NCBI GenBank assembly: GCA_048938105.1
Contig: JBHLMN010000037.1
Coordinates: forward strand, 1-16,238
DNA: 16,238 nucleotides
Direction: 5' to 3'
Source of the DNA: Promethearchaeota archaeon
GTDB lineage: Archaea > Asgardarchaeota > Heimdallarchaeia > Hodarchaeales > Hodarchaeaceae
Under the pieces are notes generated by a model that was not told where the DNA came from, made no database searches, and saw only the letters and a list, made by a program, of their open reading frames with translations. The position numbers were made by a program, and so were the translations under genes. Positions 1,274 through 16,238 of this stretch are shown here, one piece after another (the stretch's first letter is position 1; every line of letters begins with the position of its first letter).

Positions 1274-1301
1274 TTTATATTAAACGTTGGTTATATGATC
1301 A
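1274..1301 (+). repeat. dif/Xer-like site J1: TTTATATTAAA-CGTTGG-TTATATGATCA
   Basis: Intergenic AACGTTGG core; AACGTTGGTTATAT is 14/14 identical to site J2. Confidence 0.6.
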
Positions 1302-2776: not shown

Positions 2777-4462
2777 CTAAAAATATTCACGTTCATTAAT
2801 TTTCTTAATACATATAACATACATAATACAAATTAATGACAAATATAGACTAATGATAACAATATCTTCCAAAATAATTGTTTCTTCATAAAGTATCCTG
2901 ATTCTATCAATCCAGTAAAAAGGGGTCAGAGTAGAGAGGAACTTAATTTGATCAATAGTATATGCCAGCATAAATACCAATAGAATGCCAAAATAAGTTA
3001 TTCCTGAAATTGTAACTGCTTTTTCAGGATTTTTTATAAATATAGACAATAGTACAATTAAAAAGGTCATTGTAATTACTACTAGAAATGTAAGGAAGAT
3101 TCCAATTCCCAAAATAGGAATATACTTGAAACCATTTCCATATAACATGATTCCTACAATATATGCAAGATAATTCAATAGAAAAACGGTGAAAATTTCT
3201 AAACTTATCGCAGCTAACCTTTCTTTTAATATTTTAGAGGTAGGCTTTGAATGTGCAAATAATAAATCTAGAGTGTTTGATTTCTGATCTCGAATAATTA
3301 TTTTTGACCCTAAAAACATTGAAATTATTCCTGAATAAAGGAAATACTCTCCGAAGCCTTCAGTGGCAATGTATCCAATGAATGAGTTTGCAACACCATG
3401 ATTTCGTAAAATTGCGCTCATTAAGATATCTATTGAACTGTAGGTCTTTGATAGACCAACCCATGCTTCATCTCCAGGATACATTGAAGGTGTAACAAGA
3501 CCTGAAATTGTCATGATCAACGCAAATAGGTAAATGAATGCTTTATCTGATTGCAATTGCTCAATAAAACTCGGGAATCGGTGTTGTAATCTTCTAACAA
3601 AAAAGAAAAGGAATGGAATTCCTTTTTCTTTGGATTTTTTTTCGTTAATCTTATGAGAAAAGTGAGGAATAAGATCTTTCCGATCATTAATTACAAGAAT
3701 CATTCCAAATATTAAGATAGAAAAAATAAGAAGATAAAAAGCCTTATCCCAAACGACCTGTCCAATAGAAGGTTTTAGAATTGTAGAGGCACTATCATAA
3801 TAATAGAAAACTTGAAAATATTTCAGGAATTCTAATTCTTCGGAAAATAATACAATCAGACCAATTATGAATGATCCTACAATTATAGTACCAATATAAC
3901 GTTTTGCACGACCAGAATCTAAGAATAAAACAGCAAATAGGACACTGAGTAGTCCTATAAAAACAAGCAGTGTAAATAATTGAAAACACGATGCAGATAA
4001 TAATTCAATGGAAATATTTTGGCCAATTACAAGGGATAAAAGATAAATAAGAAGGAATAAATAAACAATCGATCCAAAAGACATTGATAAAACAGCTAAA
4101 ATTTTTTCCAGTAAGATTTTTCTCCTAGTTATCGGATTGGACATTAATAAATCGATTGTATTATCATCATTATCCTTAGAAAAGACGTTTGTACCCACGA
4201 GTGCGGGGATTGCTGTATATAAAATTCCAATATAGCTAAATAGAAACAATGCCAACCAGAAACGATATTCACCTCCCTCTCCATAAACGATCCCATAAAT
4301 CGCCTCCCAGTCTCCCATATCCTCTAAACCAGTGATCTGTTCGACAGCTGCTTCATCACCTGGATAAATCATAATCATTAATACTATAAATACCGTTGAA
4401 AAGAATAAAAAAGCAAGCATTAATCCTTTTTCTTGTTTGAGGCTATCTAGAAAAACCTTCAT
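2777..4462 (-). CDS. ABC-2 type exporter permease with two tandem permease domains
   Basis: About 12 TM segments; duplicated motifs YPGDEA, DNTIDLLMSNPITRRKILLEK / SNTLDLLFAHSKPTSKILKER, FYYYD / FYWID. ATG directly follows the ATPase stop (TAAATG). Confidence 0.88.
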   Translation of the reverse strand: MKVFLDSLKQEKGLMLAFLFFSTVFIVLMIMIYPGDEAAVEQITGLEDMGDWEAIYGIVYGEGGEYRFWLALFLFSYIGILYTAIPALVGTNVFSKDNDDNTIDLLMSNPITRRKILLEKILAVLSMSFGSIVYLFLLIYLLSLVIGQNISIELLSASCFQLFTLLVFIGLLSVLFAVLFLDSGRAKRYIGTIIVGSFIIGLIVLFSEELEFLKYFQVFYYYDSASTILKPSIGQVVWDKAFYLLIFSILIFGMILVINDRKDLIPHFSHKINEKKSKEKGIPFLFFFVRRLQHRFPSFIEQLQSDKAFIYLFALIMTISGLVTPSMYPGDEAWVGLSKTYSSIDILMSAILRNHGVANSFIGYIATEGFGEYFLYSGIISMFLGSKIIIRDQKSNTLDLLFAHSKPTSKILKERLAAISLEIFTVFLLNYLAYIVGIMLYGNGFKYIPILGIGIFLTFLVVITMTFLIVLLSIFIKNPEKAVTISGITYFGILLVFMLAYTIDQIKFLSTLTPFYWIDRIRILYEETIILEDIVIISLYLSLICIMYVICIKKINEREYF

Positions 4463-5371
4463 TTATTTTCCCCCAGATCTATTCTTAAGATCATAAAAAT
4501 GCATAAAATAGTCTTCAAGAGACGGTTCCGGTGCATAAAATCTTTCTATGGGGAATCTGGAAATTTTTTCAAGAAACGTATGAAAATCGCCCTTTACTAT
4601 CGAAATTAGCTCATTTTTATCTTGAGATAATACCGTTATATTGGGATCTTGGAGTAATGAGGGATTAACCTCGGATTTAAAATCAATATGAACTTTCTGT
4701 ACTACCTGTTGGTCAAGTTTTGAAACATCCATGGTTGAAATAATTTCACCCTCTCGAATTATAGACACTATATTAGCAATTTTCTGAATTTCTCCAAGAA
4801 AATGACTAGAAATAAAAAATGTTTTTCCGTTTTCTACTTCTTCAGTTATTAAATCATATAAAACCTGTTGCATTAAAGGATCTAATCCACTCGAAGGCTC
4901 ATCAAAAATATAAAAATCAGGATCATGCATAAACGCTTGAACTATAGCTACTTTTTGCCTATTCCCCCTGCTTAACGTTTTGGTGTTTTTCGTAATATCT
5001 AAATCAAATAATTTCACCATTTCTTCCATTCGTGAAGATGGCCGATTTGATCTGAGAGAAGTAAAATAATCAAGCATTTGTTTGACAGTTAAATGTCCAT
5101 ATAAAGCCACATCACCGGGAATATATCCAATTCTATCATGAATTTGAACATTCGATCGATCAACAGGAATTCCGAATAATTTTACTTCCCCACTTGATGG
5201 CTTAAGAATACTGAGAATAATTCTAATGGTGGTGGTTTTTCCCGCTCCATTTGGCCCTAAAAATCCGTAAACAGTTCCTGTTTCAACAGTAATATTGATA
5301 TTATTTACCGCAAGGAGTTTTCCATAATATTTATAGAGATTCTTAATTTCAAGAACTACTTGTTCAGTCAT
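4463..5371 (-). CDS. ABC-2 type exporter ATP-binding protein
   Basis: Walker A GPNGAGKTT, signature LSRGNRQK, Walker B/D-loop YIFDEPSSGLDP, H-loop SSH, C-terminal PSLEDYFM. Confidence 0.96.
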   Translation of the reverse strand: MTEQVVLEIKNLYKYYGKLLAVNNINITVETGTVYGFLGPNGAGKTTTIRIILSILKPSSGEVKLFGIPVDRSNVQIHDRIGYIPGDVALYGHLTVKQMLDYFTSLRSNRPSSRMEEMVKLFDLDITKNTKTLSRGNRQKVAIVQAFMHDPDFYIFDEPSSGLDPLMQQVLYDLITEEVENGKTFFISSHFLGEIQKIANIVSIIREGEIISTMDVSKLDQQVVQKVHIDFKSEVNPSLLQDPNITVLSQDKNELISIVKGDFHTFLEKISRFPIERFYAPEPSLEDYFMHFYDLKNRSGGK

Positions 5372-5411
5372 TTAAACCAACTCTTGAGTACTTTTAAGCA
5401 CTTATCAATAT

Positions 5412-5423
5412 CTACTGGAGTAG
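5412..5423. promoter_or_regulatory. Second CTAC-N4-GTAG palindrome upstream of the ABC operon
   Basis: CTACTGGAGTAG matches CTACCTGAGTAG (196-207) at 10/12; both lie 29-41 bp upstream of minus-strand ABC ATPase starts. Confidence 0.45.
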
Positions 5424-5728
5424 TTTTCTTGAAAACATATAAGGTTTATGTTCTTGACTATTGAGAACATTTAAAACTGGTTATCTTCACATTTGAGAAC
5501 ATTTTAACTAATATAGATCTAAAATTCCAATTAAAAAGGGACTTAAGAAGATTCGACTATTGCTTCAACTTTTGGCCAGTTGTAACTAAATAATGCTTCT
5601 ATAGAATATTTTATAACGAAAATTAATGTCAAGAGAATTAATAAAATCATAAGTATAACAAAAATATCCAGTACAGGCATGTTCTATCCATACGATTTAT
5701 CAATGAAAAAACGCATATCGATACATAC

Positions 5729-5808
5729 AATGTCATTTATCAAAGGTTAAACGACATTCAGACTATATAAAGAAAATATAAAGACTTTCGTGAGCATAAC
5801 GTTGGTTA
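5729..5808 (+). repeat. 80-bp direct repeat, copy 1 (module right end, type b)
   Basis: 75/80 identical, ungapped, to 13670-13749; contains AATGTC-N18-GACATT and TATATAAA; ends in site J2. Confidence 0.95.
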
Positions 5809-5816
5809 TATTCAAA
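5789..5816 (+). repeat. dif/Xer-like site J2: CGTGAGCATAA-CGTTGG-TTATATTCAAA
   Basis: 11-6-11 layout with ATAA/TTAT inner inverted repeat; arms match E. coli dif arms (GGTGCGCATAA / TTATGTTAAAT) at 9/11 and 8/11. Confidence 0.7.
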
Positions 5817-7331: not shown

Positions 7332-7440
7332 TAGTAGTATGTTTTTCTCGACCGATTTCTCCTTGTTTTCCTTGGTTTTGTGCGCTGGGCCTTTTCCCCT
7401 GTTTTCTCTTTTCTTTTTTGACCTGTCTTAATCATGTTTA

Positions 7441-7468
7441 ATGGCGTATAACGTTGGTCAGATACATT
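7441..7468 (+). repeat. dif/Xer-like site J3: ATGGCGTATAA-CGTTGG-TCAGATACATT
   Basis: AACGTTGGTCAGATACATT is 18/19 identical to site J4; lies between convergent genes. Confidence 0.65.
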
Positions 7469-7507
7469 AATGTATAATTCTCTCAATTTAGATTTAGATA
7501 GTGAATT

Positions 7508-10500
7508 CTATTTTGTGCTTTGGATATATGGTTTATTTTTTTCCTGATATTTTTCCCATTTTTTGCGTTCTGAACGCAATTTAAAGAGGTCTACATCTTT
7601 ATAGATAATGCTTTCCTCTTTTTTTGGGATAGTTCGTTCAATACGCTCCTTTTCAGGAGTGTATATTAGGGAATCACCGTATTCCGCAATGTTTGCGAAG
7701 AAACAGTAAGCATAAATTGATCTACGAGCGTCAAAGTGTGCTGCTTTGAAATCAGCTGTGACAGGAGTGAAAGCTGGGTTAAAGATTAAATCTACTGGCG
7801 GTTCAAAGTTTTTCAATTCTACCCTTAGATCCATATCGAGAAAGTCTCTGCAAATGACGATTGCAATCCTTCCAAACTCTGTGTTGCAGACGATGGTTTT
7901 TTGTGGGACAGTTCCCACATCTATTCCCTCTTTGAATCGTTTTCCCTTATAATGTAAAGAAGCTGGGATGTGTTTTTCTTGTTCCCAAAGGATTCCATTA
8001 GTATTTATAACTAAGCTAATATTTCTTTTTGTATTTTGATCATGAAAAGAGCCTGGAATTATGTACATATCGTATGCTTTAGCAAGATTTGATATGTCTT
8101 CTAGTAGTTGATTGTAATTGAGATCGATGGTCAGTTCTGGGAAGAGTAAGATATTGACTCCTTTTGAGAAAGCGATTTCTATCATGTTTTTAACCTTCGA
8201 TCGTACGATTTCAATCTTATCCTTCTGAATACCGAAAAAACCTGGGGTTTTTTCGTCGTATAAATCGCTTAGGATATCTCCTGTTTTTGATACGCCTATT
8301 TGAGCGATAGCAACTCTACACTCCCTTCTCTGGATCCTGGGGAACTCTTTGAGTAAGTCTCTATAGACTAGTTCATATTTCTTTTTTAGCAGCTTTTCCT
8401 CTGCTGCTCTCCTTACTTCTTCTGTGAATTGTTGTACCTCACGATAATCTGGTGATAAGCTGGTTTCTATGGGACTGGTAGGAGTAACTATCCCTATAGT
8501 GCTTTTAGAGATGGAGGGTTCTTTAATAGTGTTTAAGGCAGAAACCAGTATTTTCTCTTCCTTTTGCACCATATCTAGGCGTTCTAAGACCTCAATCTCC
8601 TTACTACTGTAACCAGCTTTGTTGAAGAGTTCTGCTGCAGATTTTAAATACCTAGATACGATTCCTAACAGCTTTTGTTTTTTATCAAGCCTTATTTCCG
8701 TGTCTGTTTGGATTAAGTGCCAAACTGCATCGAAATAGGTTGACGTTGCTAAAGCCCATTCAGCTCCACTTTCAAATCCCCCCTTCTGATATGAAGATGC
8801 TGCTTTTCTAAGTATCATCTTTATTTTTGGGTATAACTGGGCTTTATTTTGTATTTCAGATGACTCGTCAAACTTGTAGCCATATTCCAGTGCTTGGCAG
8901 AAAGCTGAGTTACCTGAGGCCAGTAACTTTAATTTACTGTCGGTGAAGAGTTTGCTGGCTTTTGAAAATTGGGTTGCCGCTTCTGCGAACCTGTCGGGAT
9001 CCTCATATTGTTCTGCGAGATCCATGCTTTCCCACGCTCTACAGAGGTAGTAACCCGCTTCAAGTTCCCCTCGCTCCTGCTTCGTTTTAATTAAAGTGAA
9101 AACCTCTCTGAATTGAGAAGCTGCAGAGCCGAATTTTTCTGCAGCTGCGAGAAGCTTTCCCTGTTTTTCTAGAATTCTTGCCCTTTCAATAGTAGCTCTG
9201 GCGGAACAATAGAGTATTCTTACATTAGCTACTTTTTCAAGGTTATCGAGTCGTATTCTTTCCCTTTTATCTGTAGACTGCTTGGAAGCTTTTTTCAGCG
9301 TTTTTATGGCATTGAAGAAGCTTTTTCTGGTCGTTTCATATCTCTCTATGGCTTTTTCATGTCTTTCGTTCTTACTGAGTTGTTCTGCTTCCTCTTGTAA
9401 AGCCCAAGAAATATAATAGGGTGCTTCATATTTGTAGCTAGGAAGTTCTTCAAGAATCTCACATCCCTTATTATAGGTTTTTTTAGCTTTAAGATGGTTT
9501 TCCTTTTTGTGATAGGCTTTTGCTCTCTGGATTAGGCTCCATGCTTGTGTGTACTCTATTTTTTCTTTAACTCTGTCTTTTAGGGGTTCATATTCGATAT
9601 TTTTCAATGACTCTGTGTAAGCTTCTTGAGCTCTTTCATAATGTTCTGCAGAAACGATGTGATTCCCCAATCGATCATCAAGGTGCGCGATGTATTCGTG
9701 AGCTGCAGCTGCGTGGGAATGATACCCTCTTTCATGGCATTCTTTGACCACGTTTTGGAATGTTTCCCTTGCATTCATTAGCGATTTGGTTTCCTCGGTC
9801 GTGATACCAAGTTCTTCGTAGAGGAGCCCTACTCGCATTTGAGCAGCAATAATACCAGTGCGAGACTCAATGGAATATGTAACGTACTTTTTAGCAGCAT
9901 CTATAGCCATTGATAACATTTTAATTCTTTCTTCTTTGTTATTAGCGATGTCTGCAAGAGTTTTGTAAGCTCTATAGAGAGAGGAGGAGCCGTGAGTCCT
10001 AGACCATCCCCCTTCGTACTTTTCTGCAATATTTTCTGCCTGTTTCGCGTATTGAAGCATCTTCTTAGAATATTCGTCCCGTTCATCCTTTGTGGTCGCG
10101 ATAGTTGCTAATTGCGAGTAAGACCATGTCAATGCTTGATGTATCCAAACCGAAAATGGTAAAAAAGAAAAAATCTTTAAGCACTCTTTCGCGTATTCTA
10201 TTGCCTTTTCAGCATAAGATTTCCTTTGGGCTGGGGTGAAAACACTCCTTTGAGCAAAGTACATATGAGTAAATGCAGGGTAATAGTTCGAATAGAAAGA
10301 CCAGATACTATATAAACCTGAAAATATTTTTCCTAGCTTAACAATTTCGTCAAGGTCATCTGTTACCCTCTTCAGGAAGTAATTGAGTCTACCCGAAATT
10401 GAGATAGCCCAAGAAATGTAAAATATTAGCTCAATTATTAGAGATTTATCTTTTGTTTTCCTAATGAAAGCCAAAGCTTTTTCCAGTGACTGTATCCCTT

Positions 10501-11302
10501 TGTCAACAAATTCCCTCTGTTCCCTTTCAACTTCAGAGAATTGATATCCAAGGACAAAATACATAAGACCACAGCCATAGTAGATTATTCCGAGAATTCT
10601 AGGGTCTTCACAGTTTGCTAAAATCCTTAAAGTTTCATTATGCTTTAAAAGGAGTTTCTCAATTTCTTTTCTCCATCGTTCATCCCCTCTAAAAGGCTTA
10701 ATACACCATTCAAAACCCAAAAGCCACCCATCAGCAAATAGTGATTCAGCAAGAGACTGAATATTTCCTGTCTCCTTTGAAAGCTTCCAAGCTTTGTCTG
10801 AAAAATCTCTACCTTCGTGAGAATACTTCTCAATCTCCTCTTGGGTGCTACAATAAGTTACTCTGTACAAAGAAGCCATTCCTATTCGACTCATAATTCT
10901 TGCAATACTCTCTTGATTCTCCTCCTTGGAATAGAGCTCACTAGATTCTATGAAAAGTTTACAAGATTTACCAAACGCCTCTTTTGATTTCATAATCGAA
11001 TTCATAATAAACCCGCTTATGTATAACGCTTCAGCTTCACATTCCAATTTCTCAGAGTTATTTCCAGTCTGCTCAAAGAAATCTGCAGCTTTTTTGTAAG
11101 CTTTGATAGCTTGTTTGTTTTTTGTTACATATTCCTCTGCATGTTTCATTGTCCTCGCTGCCTGCGCATAAGCATATCCCTGCTTCTTACAAGTCACAGC
11201 AGCTTTTTTCATCATTTTTTTATTTAAATAAGACCGTAATGCTTGTTTGTACAGTTTTACAGCCTTCACCCAGTTATAATCCTTCTCCTCATCCCCAGCC
11301 AT
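7508..11302 (-). CDS. Large TPR/alpha-solenoid protein with C-terminal carbon-nitrogen hydrolase (nitrilase) domain
   Basis: About 930 aa of Ala/Tyr/Lys/Glu-rich helical repeats, then RVAIAQ...FPEL (Glu), QEKHIP (Lys), VICRDF (Cys) triad. Start uncertain: ATG 11302 or GTG 11314. Confidence 0.85.
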   Translation of the reverse strand: MAGDEEKDYNWVKAVKLYKQALRSYLNKKMMKKAAVTCKKQGYAYAQAARTMKHAEEYVTKNKQAIKAYKKAADFFEQTGNNSEKLECEAEALYISGFIMNSIMKSKEAFGKSCKLFIESSELYSKEENQESIARIMSRIGMASLYRVTYCSTQEEIEKYSHEGRDFSDKAWKLSKETGNIQSLAESLFADGWLLGFEWCIKPFRGDERWRKEIEKLLLKHNETLRILANCEDPRILGIIYYGCGLMYFVLGYQFSEVEREQREFVDKGIQSLEKALAFIRKTKDKSLIIELIFYISWAISISGRLNYFLKRVTDDLDEIVKLGKIFSGLYSIWSFYSNYYPAFTHMYFAQRSVFTPAQRKSYAEKAIEYAKECLKIFSFLPFSVWIHQALTWSYSQLATIATTKDERDEYSKKMLQYAKQAENIAEKYEGGWSRTHGSSSLYRAYKTLADIANNKEERIKMLSMAIDAAKKYVTYSIESRTGIIAAQMRVGLLYEELGITTEETKSLMNARETFQNVVKECHERGYHSHAAAAHEYIAHLDDRLGNHIVSAEHYERAQEAYTESLKNIEYEPLKDRVKEKIEYTQAWSLIQRAKAYHKKENHLKAKKTYNKGCEILEELPSYKYEAPYYISWALQEEAEQLSKNERHEKAIERYETTRKSFFNAIKTLKKASKQSTDKRERIRLDNLEKVANVRILYCSARATIERARILEKQGKLLAAAEKFGSAASQFREVFTLIKTKQERGELEAGYYLCRAWESMDLAEQYEDPDRFAEAATQFSKASKLFTDSKLKLLASGNSAFCQALEYGYKFDESSEIQNKAQLYPKIKMILRKAASSYQKGGFESGAEWALATSTYFDAVWHLIQTDTEIRLDKKQKLLGIVSRYLKSAAELFNKAGYSSKEIEVLERLDMVQKEEKILVSALNTIKEPSISKSTIGIVTPTSPIETSLSPDYREVQQFTEEVRRAAEEKLLKKKYELVYRDLLKEFPRIQRRECRVAIAQIGVSKTGDILSDLYDEKTPGFFGIQKDKIEIVRSKVKNMIEIAFSKGVNILLFPELTIDLNYNQLLEDISNLAKAYDMYIIPGSFHDQNTKRNISLVINTNGILWEQEKHIPASLHYKGKRFKEGIDVGTVPQKTIVCNTEFGRIAIVICRDFLDMDLRVELKNFEPPVDLIFNPAFTPVTADFKAAHFDARRSIYAYCFFANIAEYGDSLIYTPEKERIERTIPKKEESIIYKDVDLFKLRSERKKWEKYQEKNKPYIQSTK

Positions 11303-11722
11303 TTTTAACAACACTCGTTCTCTTTCATTTTTATTATTTTGCGTTTTTATCTCCCTACTATGAAATTTTTAAGAGAACTTACAAATAATTAGGTAATCTC
11401 TCTTTAATCAACTATATATATTCTCCTCATGAGTTTAAATATCTTTCAGACCATTTCTAATCTAAATATCAGTGAATTGTCATATTTTGTTTTATTTTGA
11501 TTATATTTTTTGATTTTGATTCTCTTTATTCTTGATAAGTACATTTAATGCCATTTTTTCATCAAATTGTGTTGATAGAAACTCCTACTCCAAAGAAAAT
11601 GAAATCATTAATTTCTTGATCACTATCTTTAATACAGAATGTTTACTGTTTCTTCAAATCTCCATTTCATATCAAAAACATGGTTGTGGAACATTATTAG
11701 AATTTCTTTAATTCTTTTGTTA

Positions 11723-11754
11723 AAAATTAAAGAATAGTTCTGAAGAAACGTTGG
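11723..11754 (+). repeat. 32-bp direct repeat, copy 1 (module right end, type d)
   Basis: AAAATTAAAGAATAGTTCTGAAGAAACGTTGG is 31/32 identical to 13616-13647; identity stops right after CGTTGG. Confidence 0.93.
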
Positions 11755-11765
11755 TCAAATACATT
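11738..11765 (+). repeat. dif/Xer-like site J4: TTCTGAAGAAA-CGTTGG-TCAAATACATT
   Basis: Left arm shared with J5, right arm shared with J3. Confidence 0.65.
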
Positions 11766-12016
11766 TAGGTTATTACAGAAAAAAAATCTTTGAATTTAAT
11801 TATAAAAATAAAGAAAAGCTTAATACAATTATTTGTGTAAATGCGTTCTTTCATAATTTATCTGAACAAGAAGCTTTAAAATGAAGGTCGTTGACCTTTT
11901 TGGTATATTTGATATGTGGGGAGGGACAACTGAAACTGACGAGACACAGGGAATAGGGAGTATTTGGTAGGGGTCTTCTCATCAGTCTTTCTCTCAGTTA
12001 CTATCTCTTGATGGGC

Positions 12017-12024
12017 TTTATATA
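12017..12024 (+). promoter_or_regulatory. Archaeal TATA box TTTATATA
   Basis: Matches the TTTAWATA consensus, about 37 bp upstream of ATG 12061. Confidence 0.45.
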
Positions 12025-12060
12025 CTTGTTAAGAAAAAAGGTTAAACTACTAAAATAAGG

Positions 12061-12285
12061 ATGATCTTTGTAAGTGAAATTATCATCGGATTTTTTTATC
12101 TTAAAGAAGAATTCTGGAATAAATTCTTAATAGAACTCAAAAAGAAACAAGAAAGATGGAATAATGAAGTCTTAGAGAAAGAAGTATTGGTAATATTAGA
12201 TCCTTATTTTATAAAGAATAAAAATGTAATAGAAGGTCATATACTTTCCCATAAATGTAATTCAGATAAGCATTTAATGCCCTAA
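12061..12285 (+). CDS. Small hypothetical protein or gene fragment (74 aa)
   Basis: ATG start downstream of a TATA box; protein-like K/E-rich composition; no recognised family. Confidence 0.35.
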   Translation: MIFVSEIIIGFFYLKEEFWNKFLIELKKKQERWNNEVLEKEVLVILDPYFIKNKNVIEGHILSHKCNSDKHLMP

Positions 12286-12353
12286 CCTAAATTCTTATTT
12301 AAATTCAGTTTATCATTTCACTGGGAATTTATATGAATAAACGTTTTAGTAAA

Positions 12354-12515
12354 ATGAAAAAAGTTATTCTGTTTGTGATTATAGTAACAACATCATTTCT
12401 ACTTTCAGGTTGTACAACTCCAGAAAAGGATACCTATATCTTCCCTTTTACTTCTCCAGAAGAACAGGAAAGAAAATTTGAAATAAAAGAGGAATTTTGG
12501 AAGGATAATTTATGA
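12354..12515 (+). CDS. Small putative lipoprotein, possibly truncated
   Basis: MKKVILFVIIVTTSFLLSG-C: basic n-region, hydrophobic h-region, lipobox LSGC. Stop overlaps the next start (ATGA). Alternative start at 12333. Confidence 0.55.
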   Translation: MKKVILFVIIVTTSFLLSGCTTPEKDTYIFPFTSPEEQERKFEIKEEFWKDNL

Positions 12516-13453
12516 AGTTTGGAGTTTATATTAGAGCAGGAACAACTTATTCAGGTATGTTGGAGTTAGCAAAACAGGCTGAAAAATTAGACTATTTTGG
12601 AGTTTTTTTAAATGATCACGTTCATGGGTTTGCTAATAAGGGTAAGGAACCTTATCTTGAAGCTTGGACAGCAATGACCGGGATAGGTGTCCAAACAAAG
12701 AAAATCCGTTTGGGACATAGCGTATTATTCAACTCATTAAGGAATCCTGCCTTTCTTGCAAAATCAATAGCAACATTAGATCAAATGACAAATGGACGAT
12801 ATGAATTGTTAATAGGAGCAGGATGGAATAAACCAGAATATGAAGGATATGATCTAATGGAAAAAGGACGTGGAATGCCTTCAGCGAAAGAACGGGTTGA
12901 TCGTTTTGAAGAAGCACTGCAAATTTTACGAGGAATGTTACACAATGAAACTTTTTCTTATGAAGGTAAGTATTGGAAATTAAATAATGCAATTAATATT
13001 CCTCAACCAATCCAAAATCCATTTAGAATATCAGTTGGAGCAGATAAGCCACGAATGATAAAAATTACTGCAAAATATGCTGATGGTTTCAATATTCCAA
13101 GAAATTTAAAATTACTAAAAGAAAAAATTGAATTATTAGAACCAGAATTAGAAAAAAACAATAAACGATTGAGTGATTTCTTCATTTCTGGTTTCTCGGC
13201 TATTCACATTGCAAAAAATAATGAAGAATATGACATGATAATTAAAGCCCTGGTAACGAAAGGAAAAAAGCCTAAAGAGGAACTTAAGCAGTATGGATTT
13301 ATTGGAACTCCAGAAATTCTTGTTAATAAGCTTAGACAAGCAACAGACTTAGGAGTAAAAATGATGGTTTCAGATCTGAGACCTATGAATAATGTTTCTG
13401 AAATGAAGGATAAATTAGTTTCATTTAAGGATGAAGTTATTTCAAATTTGTAA
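12512..13453 (+). CDS. LLM-class (luciferase-like) oxidoreductase, probably F420-dependent
   Basis: MKFGV...AEKLDYFGVFLNDH, EAWTAMTGIGVQTKKIRLG, RNPAFLAKSIATLDQMTNGRYELLIGAGW, PQPIQ, AKYADGFN, IGTPE. Confidence 0.93.
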   Translation: MKFGVYIRAGTTYSGMLELAKQAEKLDYFGVFLNDHVHGFANKGKEPYLEAWTAMTGIGVQTKKIRLGHSVLFNSLRNPAFLAKSIATLDQMTNGRYELLIGAGWNKPEYEGYDLMEKGRGMPSAKERVDRFEEALQILRGMLHNETFSYEGKYWKLNNAINIPQPIQNPFRISVGADKPRMIKITAKYADGFNIPRNLKLLKEKIELLEPELEKNNKRLSDFFISGFSAIHIAKNNEEYDMIIKALVTKGKKPKEELKQYGFIGTPEILVNKLRQATDLGVKMMVSDLRPMNNVSEMKDKLVSFKDEVISNL

Positions 13454-13615
13454 AGAAGGTTATATATGTAATTTCTTTTATTTAAATACTATACTAGGTC
13501 TAAACTTCAATCCAGAGGAGAATTTGTTGTCCAGTCTTCGTTCAGCACACCACTATTTTCATACATTGGTGATTCTTTCAACCATATATGTTTCTATGTA
13601 TGTTGTCTTTGAACC

Positions 13616-13647
13616 AAAATTAAAGAACAGTTCTGAAGAAACGTTGG
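13616..13647 (+). repeat. 32-bp direct repeat, copy 2 (type d)
   Basis: 31/32 identical to 11723-11754. Confidence 0.93.
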
Positions 13648-13658
13648 ATACTAGACAA
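13631..13658 (+). repeat. dif/Xer-like site J5: TTCTGAAGAAA-CGTTGG-ATACTAGACAA
   Basis: Exact AACGTTGG core; left arm identical to J4. Confidence 0.6.
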
Positions 13659-13669
13659 TTCTTACGGAA

Positions 13670-13749
13670 AATGTCATATAACAAAGATTAAACGACATTC
13701 AGACTATATAAAGAAAATATAAAGATTTTCGTGAGCATAACGTTTGTTA
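13670..13749 (+). repeat. 80-bp direct repeat, copy 2 (type b)
   Basis: 75/80 identical to 5729-5808. Confidence 0.95.
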
Positions 13750-13757
13750 GTGGAACA
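13730..13757 (+). repeat. dif/Xer-like site J6: CGTGAGCATAA-CGTTTG-TTAGTGGAACA
   Basis: Left arm identical to J2; spacer has one mismatch. Confidence 0.6.
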
Positions 13758-14559: not shown

Positions 14560-14621
14560 TGTTATTCAAATGTTGGTTAAAAAAAGGATATATGATAAAA
14601 TTCAAATAAAACAAGAAATAT
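14560..14621 (+). repeat. Site J7 (TGTTATTCAAA-TGTTGG-TTAAAAAAAGG) and degenerate repeat type e, copy 2
   Basis: Spacer is one mismatch from CGTTGG; downstream sequence repeats 13756-13813. Confidence 0.6.
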
Positions 14622-14873
14622 TAATGGTATATAACGCAAGTAGTACACGCGATCCTCATCTTATTTCTAAAATCTTAATTTTTGGGATTATTCAATATAA
14701 TATTTTCATAAGTCCATAGTTCAATATCGTATTAAAAAATAATTCAAATCTATAGCTATTTACAGTATTGGTTCCAAATTTTGTTCTATTTAAACAATCC
14801 ATCCTATTGAATCTTCGGAACCATTCATTAGATTCAGTGTTAACTTGCAAAACTGTTATATTTGCTTGATTAA

Positions 14874-16238
14874 TCACATTTTATTATTCTCATCCTTTGG
14901 CTGAGACTTCGATTTTCGACCTCTTAAACGAGGAGAAAGTCGTATTTTATTTATTCTTCCATAAGCTTGTTTCCAAAGTTTTTGAATCTGATGAAGTTCA
15001 GGTATTTTAGATATAATCTGTGGATCTTTTGAGAGAGCGTCAACAGTATCAGCCACAAGCAGTAATTCGACATCTTTAACTTCCCCTGTTACTTTCTCTC
15101 TCTCATGTTCTTCTGTGAGTGAGACTAATTGGCGTTTTTTTCGATTGAGGTCATTGAATTCCTCAATATAACGATTTTTCGTTCGTCTGTATGCTGCTTC
15201 GGAAATTTCTCCCTTTTCATAGGCATCTAAAAGCACGTTTAATGTTTCTTGTATTAAAATAATTTGGTACTCTATGTACTCGCCTCTCGACTCCTCCTGT
15301 GCAAGTAACGTTTGGTATCTTTCTTCCAACAGATAGAGTTCCTCTTTTAAGGGAAAACTTAATCGTCGAAAATCACTTGATCGAATAATTTTTTCGGTAC
15401 GATCTTTAATTAGTTTTTCAAGCTCTGCTTCAATGGCTAGTTTTTGGGCTTTAATTTCCTCCAATTCGCTTAGCTCCTCCACAACTTCGGTTTTAGTAGA
15501 AAGTGGTCTGATAATTAATCCTTGAAGTGTTCCTGTGAGTAAGATCACAATAAGTGAAGAATAGAGGAGGAGTTCTGCAAGTGGATGGTTTAATGGCTCT
15601 AAGTTGACGTATGCGAATAATGCCAAAATTGCAGTGGTTAAACCCTTAAATCCAGCGATTCCAACAAATAACCGTTCTTTATTGGAGAAAAATTCTGCTG
15701 TTTTCTTCTGAAGCTCCAGAGGTAAGGTTACTACAAAGACAGCTATAATCCTACTGATAATTACAATCAAACTTATGAGTATAGCAATGAAAAAATAGCT
15801 AGGAAGAATGTCAATACTTAAAAGAACACCAATAAAAATAAAAGCAACAATTTCAAATAGAAACGTGATATCATCCCAGAAATCATACAAATGAGTGCGA
15901 GAAAAAAACGTTTCAAAACCAATAAAACTAGGATTACGAATAATTATCCCACTAACAATAGCTGCAATTGCAGAGGAGATTTGGAGTGGTTCTGAAAGAA
16001 CAAATATCAAGAAAACTGCACTCAGTGTTATAAAGGAGATTTCACTTTTTTTCTCTACAATACTTATAAATCGAACAGCTCCCCAGCCGATAAGGATGCC
16101 AATTAAGATTCCACCGATGATTGCCCAGATACCAAGGATGATAAGGTTGAAAGAAAACTGAACCTGCCCTTTTCCCTCAATTAATTGAGGAACAAAAATT
16201 ATTACGACAAGAAGAATCGCAATTACATCATTAAAAGC
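14874..16238 (-). CDS. Cation:proton antiporter, CPA1/NhaP type, with long helical C-terminal domain (5' end beyond window)
   Basis: Frame is open from 16238: AFNDVIAILLV... (ND motif of ESxxND), later IAGFKGLTTAILAL and LTGTLQGLIIRPL. The track start at 16010 is not the true start. Confidence 0.9.
   Translation of the reverse strand, partial: AFNDVIAILLVVIIFVPQLIEGKGQVQFSFNLIILGIWAIIGGILIGILIGWGAVRFISIVEKKSEISFITLSAVFLIFVLSEPLQISSAIAAIVSGIIIRNPSFIGFETFFSRTHLYDFWDDITFLFEIVAFIFIGVLLSIDILPSYFFIAILISLIVIISRIIAVFVVTLPLELQKKTAEFFSNKERLFVGIAGFKGLTTAILALFAYVNLEPLNHPLAELLLYSSLIVILLTGTLQGLIIRPLSTKTEVVEELSELEEIKAQKLAIEAELEKLIKDRTEKIIRSSDFRRLSFPLKEELYLLEERYQTLLAQEESRGEYIEYQIILIQETLNVLLDAYEKGEISEAAYRRTKNRYIEEFNDLNRKKRQLVSLTEEHEREKVTGEVKDVELLLVADTVDALSKDPQIISKIPELHQIQKLWKQAYGRINKIRLSPRLRGRKSKSQPKDENNKM

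Follow-up and report, generated by a model that had tools for sequence, protein, structure and literature searches.

Integrative mobile elements exploiting Xer (IMEX), among them the CTX and TLC phages, lack an integrase and use the Xer recombinases of their hosts, and when they insert repeatedly, dif-like sites pile up in direct orientation. The pdif modules of Acinetobacter plasmids and chromosomal dif-module islands, which rely on XerC/XerD, are known to undergo inversion, excision and two-step exchange and to form fusion modules (PMC13141974, PMC12907356). For archaeal dif, AT-rich flanks of ~23 bp have been proposed as partner-binding sites (PMC2958812, PMC8371274). Here we describe an array of dif-like sites that bounds gene modules on a 16,238-bp contig (C3, JBHLMN010000037.1; the whole contig is referred to as the window) of a Promethearchaeota archaeon (G000, assembly GCA_048938105.1; other G codes denote the genomes of relatives). 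It belongs to the Hodarchaeales, suggested to be sister to the eukaryotes, although that position is disputed (PMC12395588). A literature search, incomplete in its coverage, found no description of this system.

We put at roughly two in three the probability that the locus reflects XerA-type exchange at dif-like sites, with the ends shared by two adjacent modules being a recycled junction, d/B (lower-case letters name the flank to the left of a spacer and capitals the flank to its right), and with cargo having been joined illegitimately.

Results

Collected with an iterated profile, the sites number ~56 in the intergenic regions of G000 and 261 when distinct sites of relatives are included. 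Over these 261, the site spans 28 bp in an 11-6-11 arrangement, with the consensus ATGTCRTWTAA, the spacer CGTTGG and then a near mirror image; both arms follow one palindromic consensus, and the inner 5 bp on each side (TATAA/TTATA) are the same as in P. abyssi dif (PMC2958812). Nearly all top-scoring matches (39/42) are intergenic. Consecutive primary sites are co-oriented in 44 of 44 cases regardless of gene strand, the genes downstream of sites lying on the same strand in 26 cases and on the opposite strand in 36. The pattern exceeds its reversed control in 19 of 20 same-genus genomes and is at control level in other families, and arrays occur at six or more loci of the closed G009 chromosome. 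A loose pattern search of single-contig genomes returned no more than its control, no viral contig carried the site pattern, and Rfam gave no match.

The flanks of these sites assort independently. Within G000, the left flank alone is common to 45 site pairs and the right flank alone to 42, and no pair has both in common; with relatives included the counts are 326, 474 and 6, the last against 4.6 expected if the two sides were independent, although site pairs are not independent events and such ratios overstate significance. In left-sharing pairs identity is raised from -11 to -1, where the excess stops, and is at background from +6; right-sharing pairs show the reverse, with the excess starting at +6. 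The first-pass annotation had proposed a crossover in the spacer and homologies that stop there, and both proposals describe the bulk of the sites well, while some whole junctions (c/B and d/B; Table 1) have been inherited intact. Near a primary spacer, meaning within 8 bp, lie 62 (33%) of 189 intergenic homology ends, ~9-fold above the 3.8% expected, and another 30 lie near the spacer of a secondary site, described below (2.7% expected, ~6-fold). Inversions also occur, since in 64 site pairs a left flank is the reverse complement of a right flank. Together, these comparisons of sequence show that DNA on either side of the sites has been exchanged at the spacer, both within and between species of one Hodarchaeales genus. 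Another mosaic junction does not involve a site: 14734-14856 and 7386-7476 adjoin in C56:200546-200760 (92% and 87% identity), and the joined form is present in sequencing run X1.

The modules at 7458-11748 (carrying a TPR-nitrilase gene) and 11755-13641 (carrying an LLM oxidoreductase gene), here modules 1 and 2, share both ends, with coordinates and strings exactly as first described. Their starts (7458-7468 and 11755-11765) differ by one base and match at 14 of 16 positions over the common stretch, B, before diverging; their ends (11723-11748 and 13616-13641), which contain d, are identical at 25 of 26 positions. By chance, ~3e-5 such 26-mer pairs would be expected per window, and ~1e-6 for the anchored 14/16 match. 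The string AACGTTGG has five copies on the plus strand against 0.16 expected, a number reached in none of 2000 shuffles. The arm pairings b (J2 and J6; 71-80 bp), B (J3 and J4) and d (J4 and J5) likewise hold. The exception is the common right arm A assigned to J1 and J2, which was an error: the two share only the 6-bp consensus TTATAT and belong to separate flank families.

B is seen only with the TPR-nitrilase lineage, whose orthologous DNA is 87-95% identical in G018, G006, G020 and L266-L269. Full-length B lies at the 3´ end of the gene, directly preceded by d, in L266, L267, L268 and G018. The TPR modules of G018 and L266, which are probably one species, also end in d, and those of G006 and L268 have other ends. 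Because G018 and L266 carry B preceded by d and end in d, B-TPR-d is an inherited unit. At C56:189240-189420 module 1 has a gene-less copy, a 180-bp B...d unit in which the last 11 TPR codons survive, the remainder of the gene having been lost at a short microhomology. Where rpoB is 77-81% identical, the TPR module is 87% identical. These comparisons indicate that the ends shared by modules 1 and 2 derive, as its two halves, from a single ancestral d/B junction native to the TPR-nitrilase module. That junction is seen in its native form in L268, with its halves on either side of the original gene in module 1 and G018, without that gene on C56, and with new cargo between its halves in module 2. 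We do not claim a role in defence for the TPR-nitrilase, as its PADLOC matches cover the nitrilase domain only.

Module 2 is a patchwork. It opens with 58 bp of B and a 74-bp scrap of a methyltransferase-like gene; 135 bases that could not be placed lead on to the LLM block, and another 55 such bases separate this block from a truncated epsilon unit with d. None of its inner edges is a convincing site. The LLM block is 96% identical in G011 and L262 and 98% in G018, whereas rpoB is 83.5% identical in G011 and 80.6% in G018. After 13528 all other LLM carriers continue differently. When the end of module 2 is joined to its start, 110 of 125 positions are identical to the native d/B junction of L268, unbroken across the spacer, a match that a circular intermediate predicts. 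The first-pass annotation also saw in the shared ends a reusable chassis that captures genes in either orientation. This applies only in a passive sense: cargo was joined at positions 11812, 12019, 13528 and 13584, and because these joints have no site, the chassis itself does not capture genes at defined points. Orientation does vary across different cargos, and each single cargo keeps its orientation relative to the spacer in all relatives examined. An exact look-up of the LLM protein gave no match. A short open reading frame with a lipoprotein-like signal (12333-12515, LLSGC) overlaps the start of the LLM gene and is possibly a truncated gene. An LLM gene of 91.6% identity lies at L264:4732-5721 in a metagenome-assembled genome (MAG) labelled Thorarchaeota, with no site nearby, reflecting either cross-class transfer or mis-binning.

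Secondary sites accompany the primary sites at preferred distances: of 234 primary sites, 36 have one at +52, 12 at -59 and 6 at -28, whereas the mean per offset is 0.6. Their spacers are variable (C-N4-G; 33 of 39 begin with C and 26 end with G). Within the 24-bp linker lie two TAYRTA boxes at a distance of 12 bp (TAYRTA-N6-TAYRTA), and this pair is found at +15/+27 after 23% of primary sites, against a median of 0% elsewhere. Among 82 genomes of the class, the exact compound pattern is confined to this genus. Of the window's gene-less units, b is of the 59-bp type and d of the 28-bp type, and a 40-bp unit follows J5. About 23 copies of d in 9 genomes precede many different right arms and diverge upstream at, or ~10 bp before, the secondary spacer. 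B as a 52-bp mini-module was rejected, given that the sequence of orthologues continues past its supposed boundary and that only the left half of a site scores. The box pair is probably bound by a factor that stops dozens of like-spaced sites from deleting the chromosome.

Three PF00589 matches represent the recombinases of G000: an intact XerA (C14), a Xer-like gene beside a site (C56) and a broken gene (C45). XerA passes NF040815 (282.9 bits against a cut-off of 220), and its best PDB match is 4a8e. All three fall below the TIGR02249 cut-off, leaving IntI not found, and neither XerC nor XerD was found above cut-off in this genome. Nearly all genomes of the genus have XerA, and in 8 genomes no other tyrosine recombinase was found; several sites are present in 7 of these 8. 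The G000 protein is 79-91% identical to those of Hodarchaeota/Heimdallarchaeota MAGs, the closed chromosome CP070695.1 among them. We regard XerA as the likeliest enzyme, roughly three to one over a dedicated integrase. The XerA frames in L171 and L174 (G001, G016) have 428 codons and align piecewise, which suggests an insertion or extension. Site-like matches near xerA in relatives were discarded, as they appear to lie in coding sequence. One site on C56 is directly followed (200734-202139, L002) by a gene of ribbon-helix-helix-like type and by an intact Xer-like integrase that is 27% identical to XerA, and an HNH-type gene adjoins them.

Features of the window

The coordinates are collected in Table 1.

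Table 1. Sites, flanking units and cargo in the 16,238-bp window
Feature	Position	Strand	Remarks
J1, primary dif-like site	1274..1301	+	Spacer 1285-1290; right flank is its own family
Near-perfect palindromic secondary site	5730..5757	-	Spacer 5741-5746; 59 bp before J2; arm score 21.7
Gene-less unit b, secondary site to J2	5747..5799	+	Left-flank family of 18 members; homology begins at secondary spacer or its outer arm
J2, primary site	5789..5816	+	Spacer 5800-5805
J3, primary site c/B	7441..7468	+	Spacer 7452-7457; same junction at G000 C56:189240
B flank of module 1	7458..7507	+	~60 bp shorter than orthologues, between two CATTAA repeats
TPR-nitrilase (carbon-nitrogen hydrolase) gene, module 1 cargo	7508..11314	-	Pfam CN_hydrolase, TPR_12
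Decayed inverted d and spacer, just inside module 1 end	11685..11713	-	Local hairpin z -0.3
d' end of module 1	11721..11748	+	Degenerate secondary spacer 11721-11726 and 22-bp d unit; weak site
J4, primary site d'/B	11738..11765	+	Spacer 11749-11754; junction type also in G018, L266-L268
B' start of module 2	11755..11812	+	First 58 bp of TPR-module flank
74-bp scrap from interior of methyltransferase-like gene	11810..11883	+	85% to own C14 gene; 91-94% to G003, G011, G018
LLM block, module 2 cargo (gene 12512-13453)	12019..13528	+	No recognisable site at either edge
Module 2 end	13584..13641	+	Truncated epsilon unit, secondary site 13603-13630 (spacer CCAAAA, score 10.7), 22-bp d unit; 94% to unit preceding B in L268
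J5, primary site d/C	13631..13658	+	Spacer 13642-13647
Palindromic secondary site	13671..13698	-	Spacer 13682-13687; 40 bp after J5, 59 bp before J6; arm score 19.4
Unit b, second copy	13688..13740	+	94% to 5729-5808
J6, primary site	13730..13757	+	Spacer CGTTTG, 13741-13746
J7, weak site	14560..14587	+	Spacer TGTTGG, 14571-14576; score 13.8; flank 81% to J6 flank

G000 measures 5.85 Mb, with a GC content of 35% and 86% coding sequence; GCA_016839515.1, matched by a same-genus relative, has been placed in the Hodarchaeales (PMC13247210). The genes of the window encode TrmB, an ICMT/PEMT-like protein, an ABC pair, a BNR protein, the TPR-nitrilase, the LLM oxidoreductase, a small membrane protein and a Na+/H+ exchanger. 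By Pfam, modules carry host-type cargo, and they hold 1-5 genes on either strand with their own promoter regions. Positions 16162-16238 are identical to the end of contig C11, which bears further sites, so the array probably continues there. Both window ends had no match in the five relatives searched for each, and no empty-site allele is therefore definable.

Several smaller observations concern the modules. The decayed inverted d just inside module 1 probably marks a past inversion; it gives J4 alone an attC-looking hairpin (11685-11754), which is not significant. The ABC pair (2777-5536, 92% in G002) and the ICMT-like gene (1451-2411, 89% in G018) have travelled separately with no site between them, and a 41-bp repeat at 2565-2605 recurs at C34:5081-5121 (98% identical) and in G011 (90%). 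Small gene pairs resembling PIN-domain toxin-antitoxin systems are found in many modules (C9, C56:188274-188696, C14:87604-88014, L049, L050, L056; N-termini only). In L059 (G008:C89) a two-module block is tandemly duplicated between direct sites, as site-specific amplification would give.

Discussion

We propose that the exchange is the work of a homomeric tyrosine recombinase, most likely XerA of the host, which would excise and integrate DNA between sites whose spacers match. If a circle or cointegrate with a d/B junction integrated through this junction, the outcome would be B...cargo...d, and all modules descended from d/B would therefore share both ends. New cargo would enter by ordinary microhomology or illegitimate joining, and the secondary sites would permit two-step exchange and inversion. 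Module 2 may have arisen in either of two ways. A stretch of ~120 bp around a d/B site could have come to lie within LLM-bearing DNA, or a duplicated copy of B-TPR-d could have had its interior replaced, the latter being a possibility that we keep in view; in either case the site would then have mobilised the product. More broadly, and only tentatively, the Hodarchaeum group may possess an integrase-free XerA cassette system with compound sites, each composed of a primary uniform-spacer site, a TAYRTA-N6-TAYRTA box pair and a secondary variable-spacer site. Excision and integration at different spacer classes would permute such modules circularly, and a ~120-bp junction fragment would make any DNA a cassette.

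Besides the non-independence of the site pairs, a number of points weigh against XerA-type exchange and a recycled d/B junction. Slightly more than half of the homology ends (97/189) are near no spacer, and the cut could not be placed inside the spacer, spacer variants being too rare. Neither the d nor the B arms conform well to the consensus (arm score of 4.3 for J4). A genome-wide test for native circle junctions was not significant (5-7 of 91 modules, P 0.13-0.37), for which reason the d/B match of module 2 could reflect common descent together with a frequent d unit, and no excised module circle was seen among the assembled contigs, an uninformative search. Other integrase clades adjoin sites in G000, G009, G011 and G020. 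Finally, many direct sites on one chromosome would need some form of control, and published archaeal dif is single-copy (PMC8371274).

The integrase clades raise the question of whether a mobile, dedicated Xer-like integrase (the gene at C56:201270 or the L184/L185/L189 clade) acts in trans at the same sites and by the same module logic, with XerA a bystander. L002, L184, L185 and L189 lie within ~1 kb of a site, xerA is without an intergenic site nearby, and a transient dedicated integrase would account for chromosome stability. However, the site-adjacent integrases form two unrelated, patchy clades (24-38% identical to each other) that may be mere cargo, and none was found in G001, G016, G014, G006, G003, G004 or G013, which are 83-95% complete and have sites; we consider this explanation unlikely. 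It is improbable that no site-specific enzyme is involved at all, the palindrome being the operator of a dimeric regulator and the mosaic arising from microhomology recombination at short repeats. Such a model would suit the many off-site breakpoints, the abundant gene scraps and the regulatory look of the box pair, but an operator needs neither an asymmetric conserved spacer, nor co-orientation in 44 of 44 cases, nor a switch of identity exactly at the spacer.

Still less probable is an integron array of the kind known as CALIN (cluster of attC sites lacking integron-integrases), in which atypical attC sites would be recombined by IntI as single-stranded hairpins. The AAC/GTT core, the direct orientation and the gene-less units recall such arrays, and integrons are enriched in Asgard archaea (PMC9668308). 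Yet upstream of J1-J5 no hairpin reaches significance (z -1.5 to +0.7), the single low z being due to local palindromes and not to an R''-R' stem; the arms of paired sites are no more complementary than shuffled ones (P 0.16 and 0.86); genes lie on both strands, and IntI is missing from the matches described above. The recurrence of c/B and d/B as whole junctions, and the position of arrays near contig ends, might hint at a fixed element resembling a miniature inverted-repeat transposable element (MITE), with homology running through both sides of the spacer, or at misassembled junctions. We give these very little credence. The independent assortment of flanks, the many right arms that follow d, and the absence of terminal repeats with a target duplication contradict the former. 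As for misassembly, near-identical Logan contigs of run X1, which may be the source sample, bridge J4 (11193-11863, 0 differences) and J1 (another contig, 3 differences) among the listed pieces, from which J3 and J5 are absent, and arrays are present in the closed G009 chromosome as well.

How cassettes originate is a long-standing open question. This locus suggests how dif-like shuffling turns ordinary DNA into new mobile cassettes; if true, it would offer an observable route of cassette birth, a process for which integrons and dif modules have so far given no explanation. Asgard archaea have large genomes that contain many acquired genes, and genus-wide site-specific shuffling would supply a mechanism for this gene flux. 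Direct tests in vitro are feasible for the site, for the candidate enzyme and for the accessory boxes, all of which are short.

Among known systems, integrons and CALINs resemble the array in that their sites are direct repeats, circular cassettes are implied, cargo is shared horizontally and some units lack genes (PMC9668308). They differ in having an attC hairpin, IntI and attI, and in cassette genes that are mostly co-oriented. Archaeal XerA/dif shares the single recombinase, the palindromic 11-6-11 site and the inner TATAA/TTATA (PMC2958812, PMC8371274). In contrast, dif, which serves the resolution of chromosome dimers, is a single-copy housekeeping site at the replication terminus, whereas here there are ~60 sites per genome with shuffled flanks. 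IMEX are similar in their use of host Xer and their stacked direct dif-like sites; here the modules contain no phage or replication genes, no viral contig carries the site, and there is no folded attP. The likeness to pdif/dif modules extends further, to 28-bp 11-6-11 sites that bound accessory modules, some without open reading frames, to the lack of a module-encoded recombinase and to crossover at matching spacers. What sets the present modules apart is an archaeal host, a single arm consensus without C and D modules, and primary sites that have one spacer and are all direct, unlike the alternating inverted sites of pdif. Further differences are the secondary variable-spacer sites at 28, 40, 52 or 59 bp with the TAYRTA box pair, and the arrays at six or more chromosomal loci of a closed genome. 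Read from its sequence, the locus bears the genuine imprint of site-specific exchange at dif-like sites, and the system adds a new form to the Xer-type module systems.

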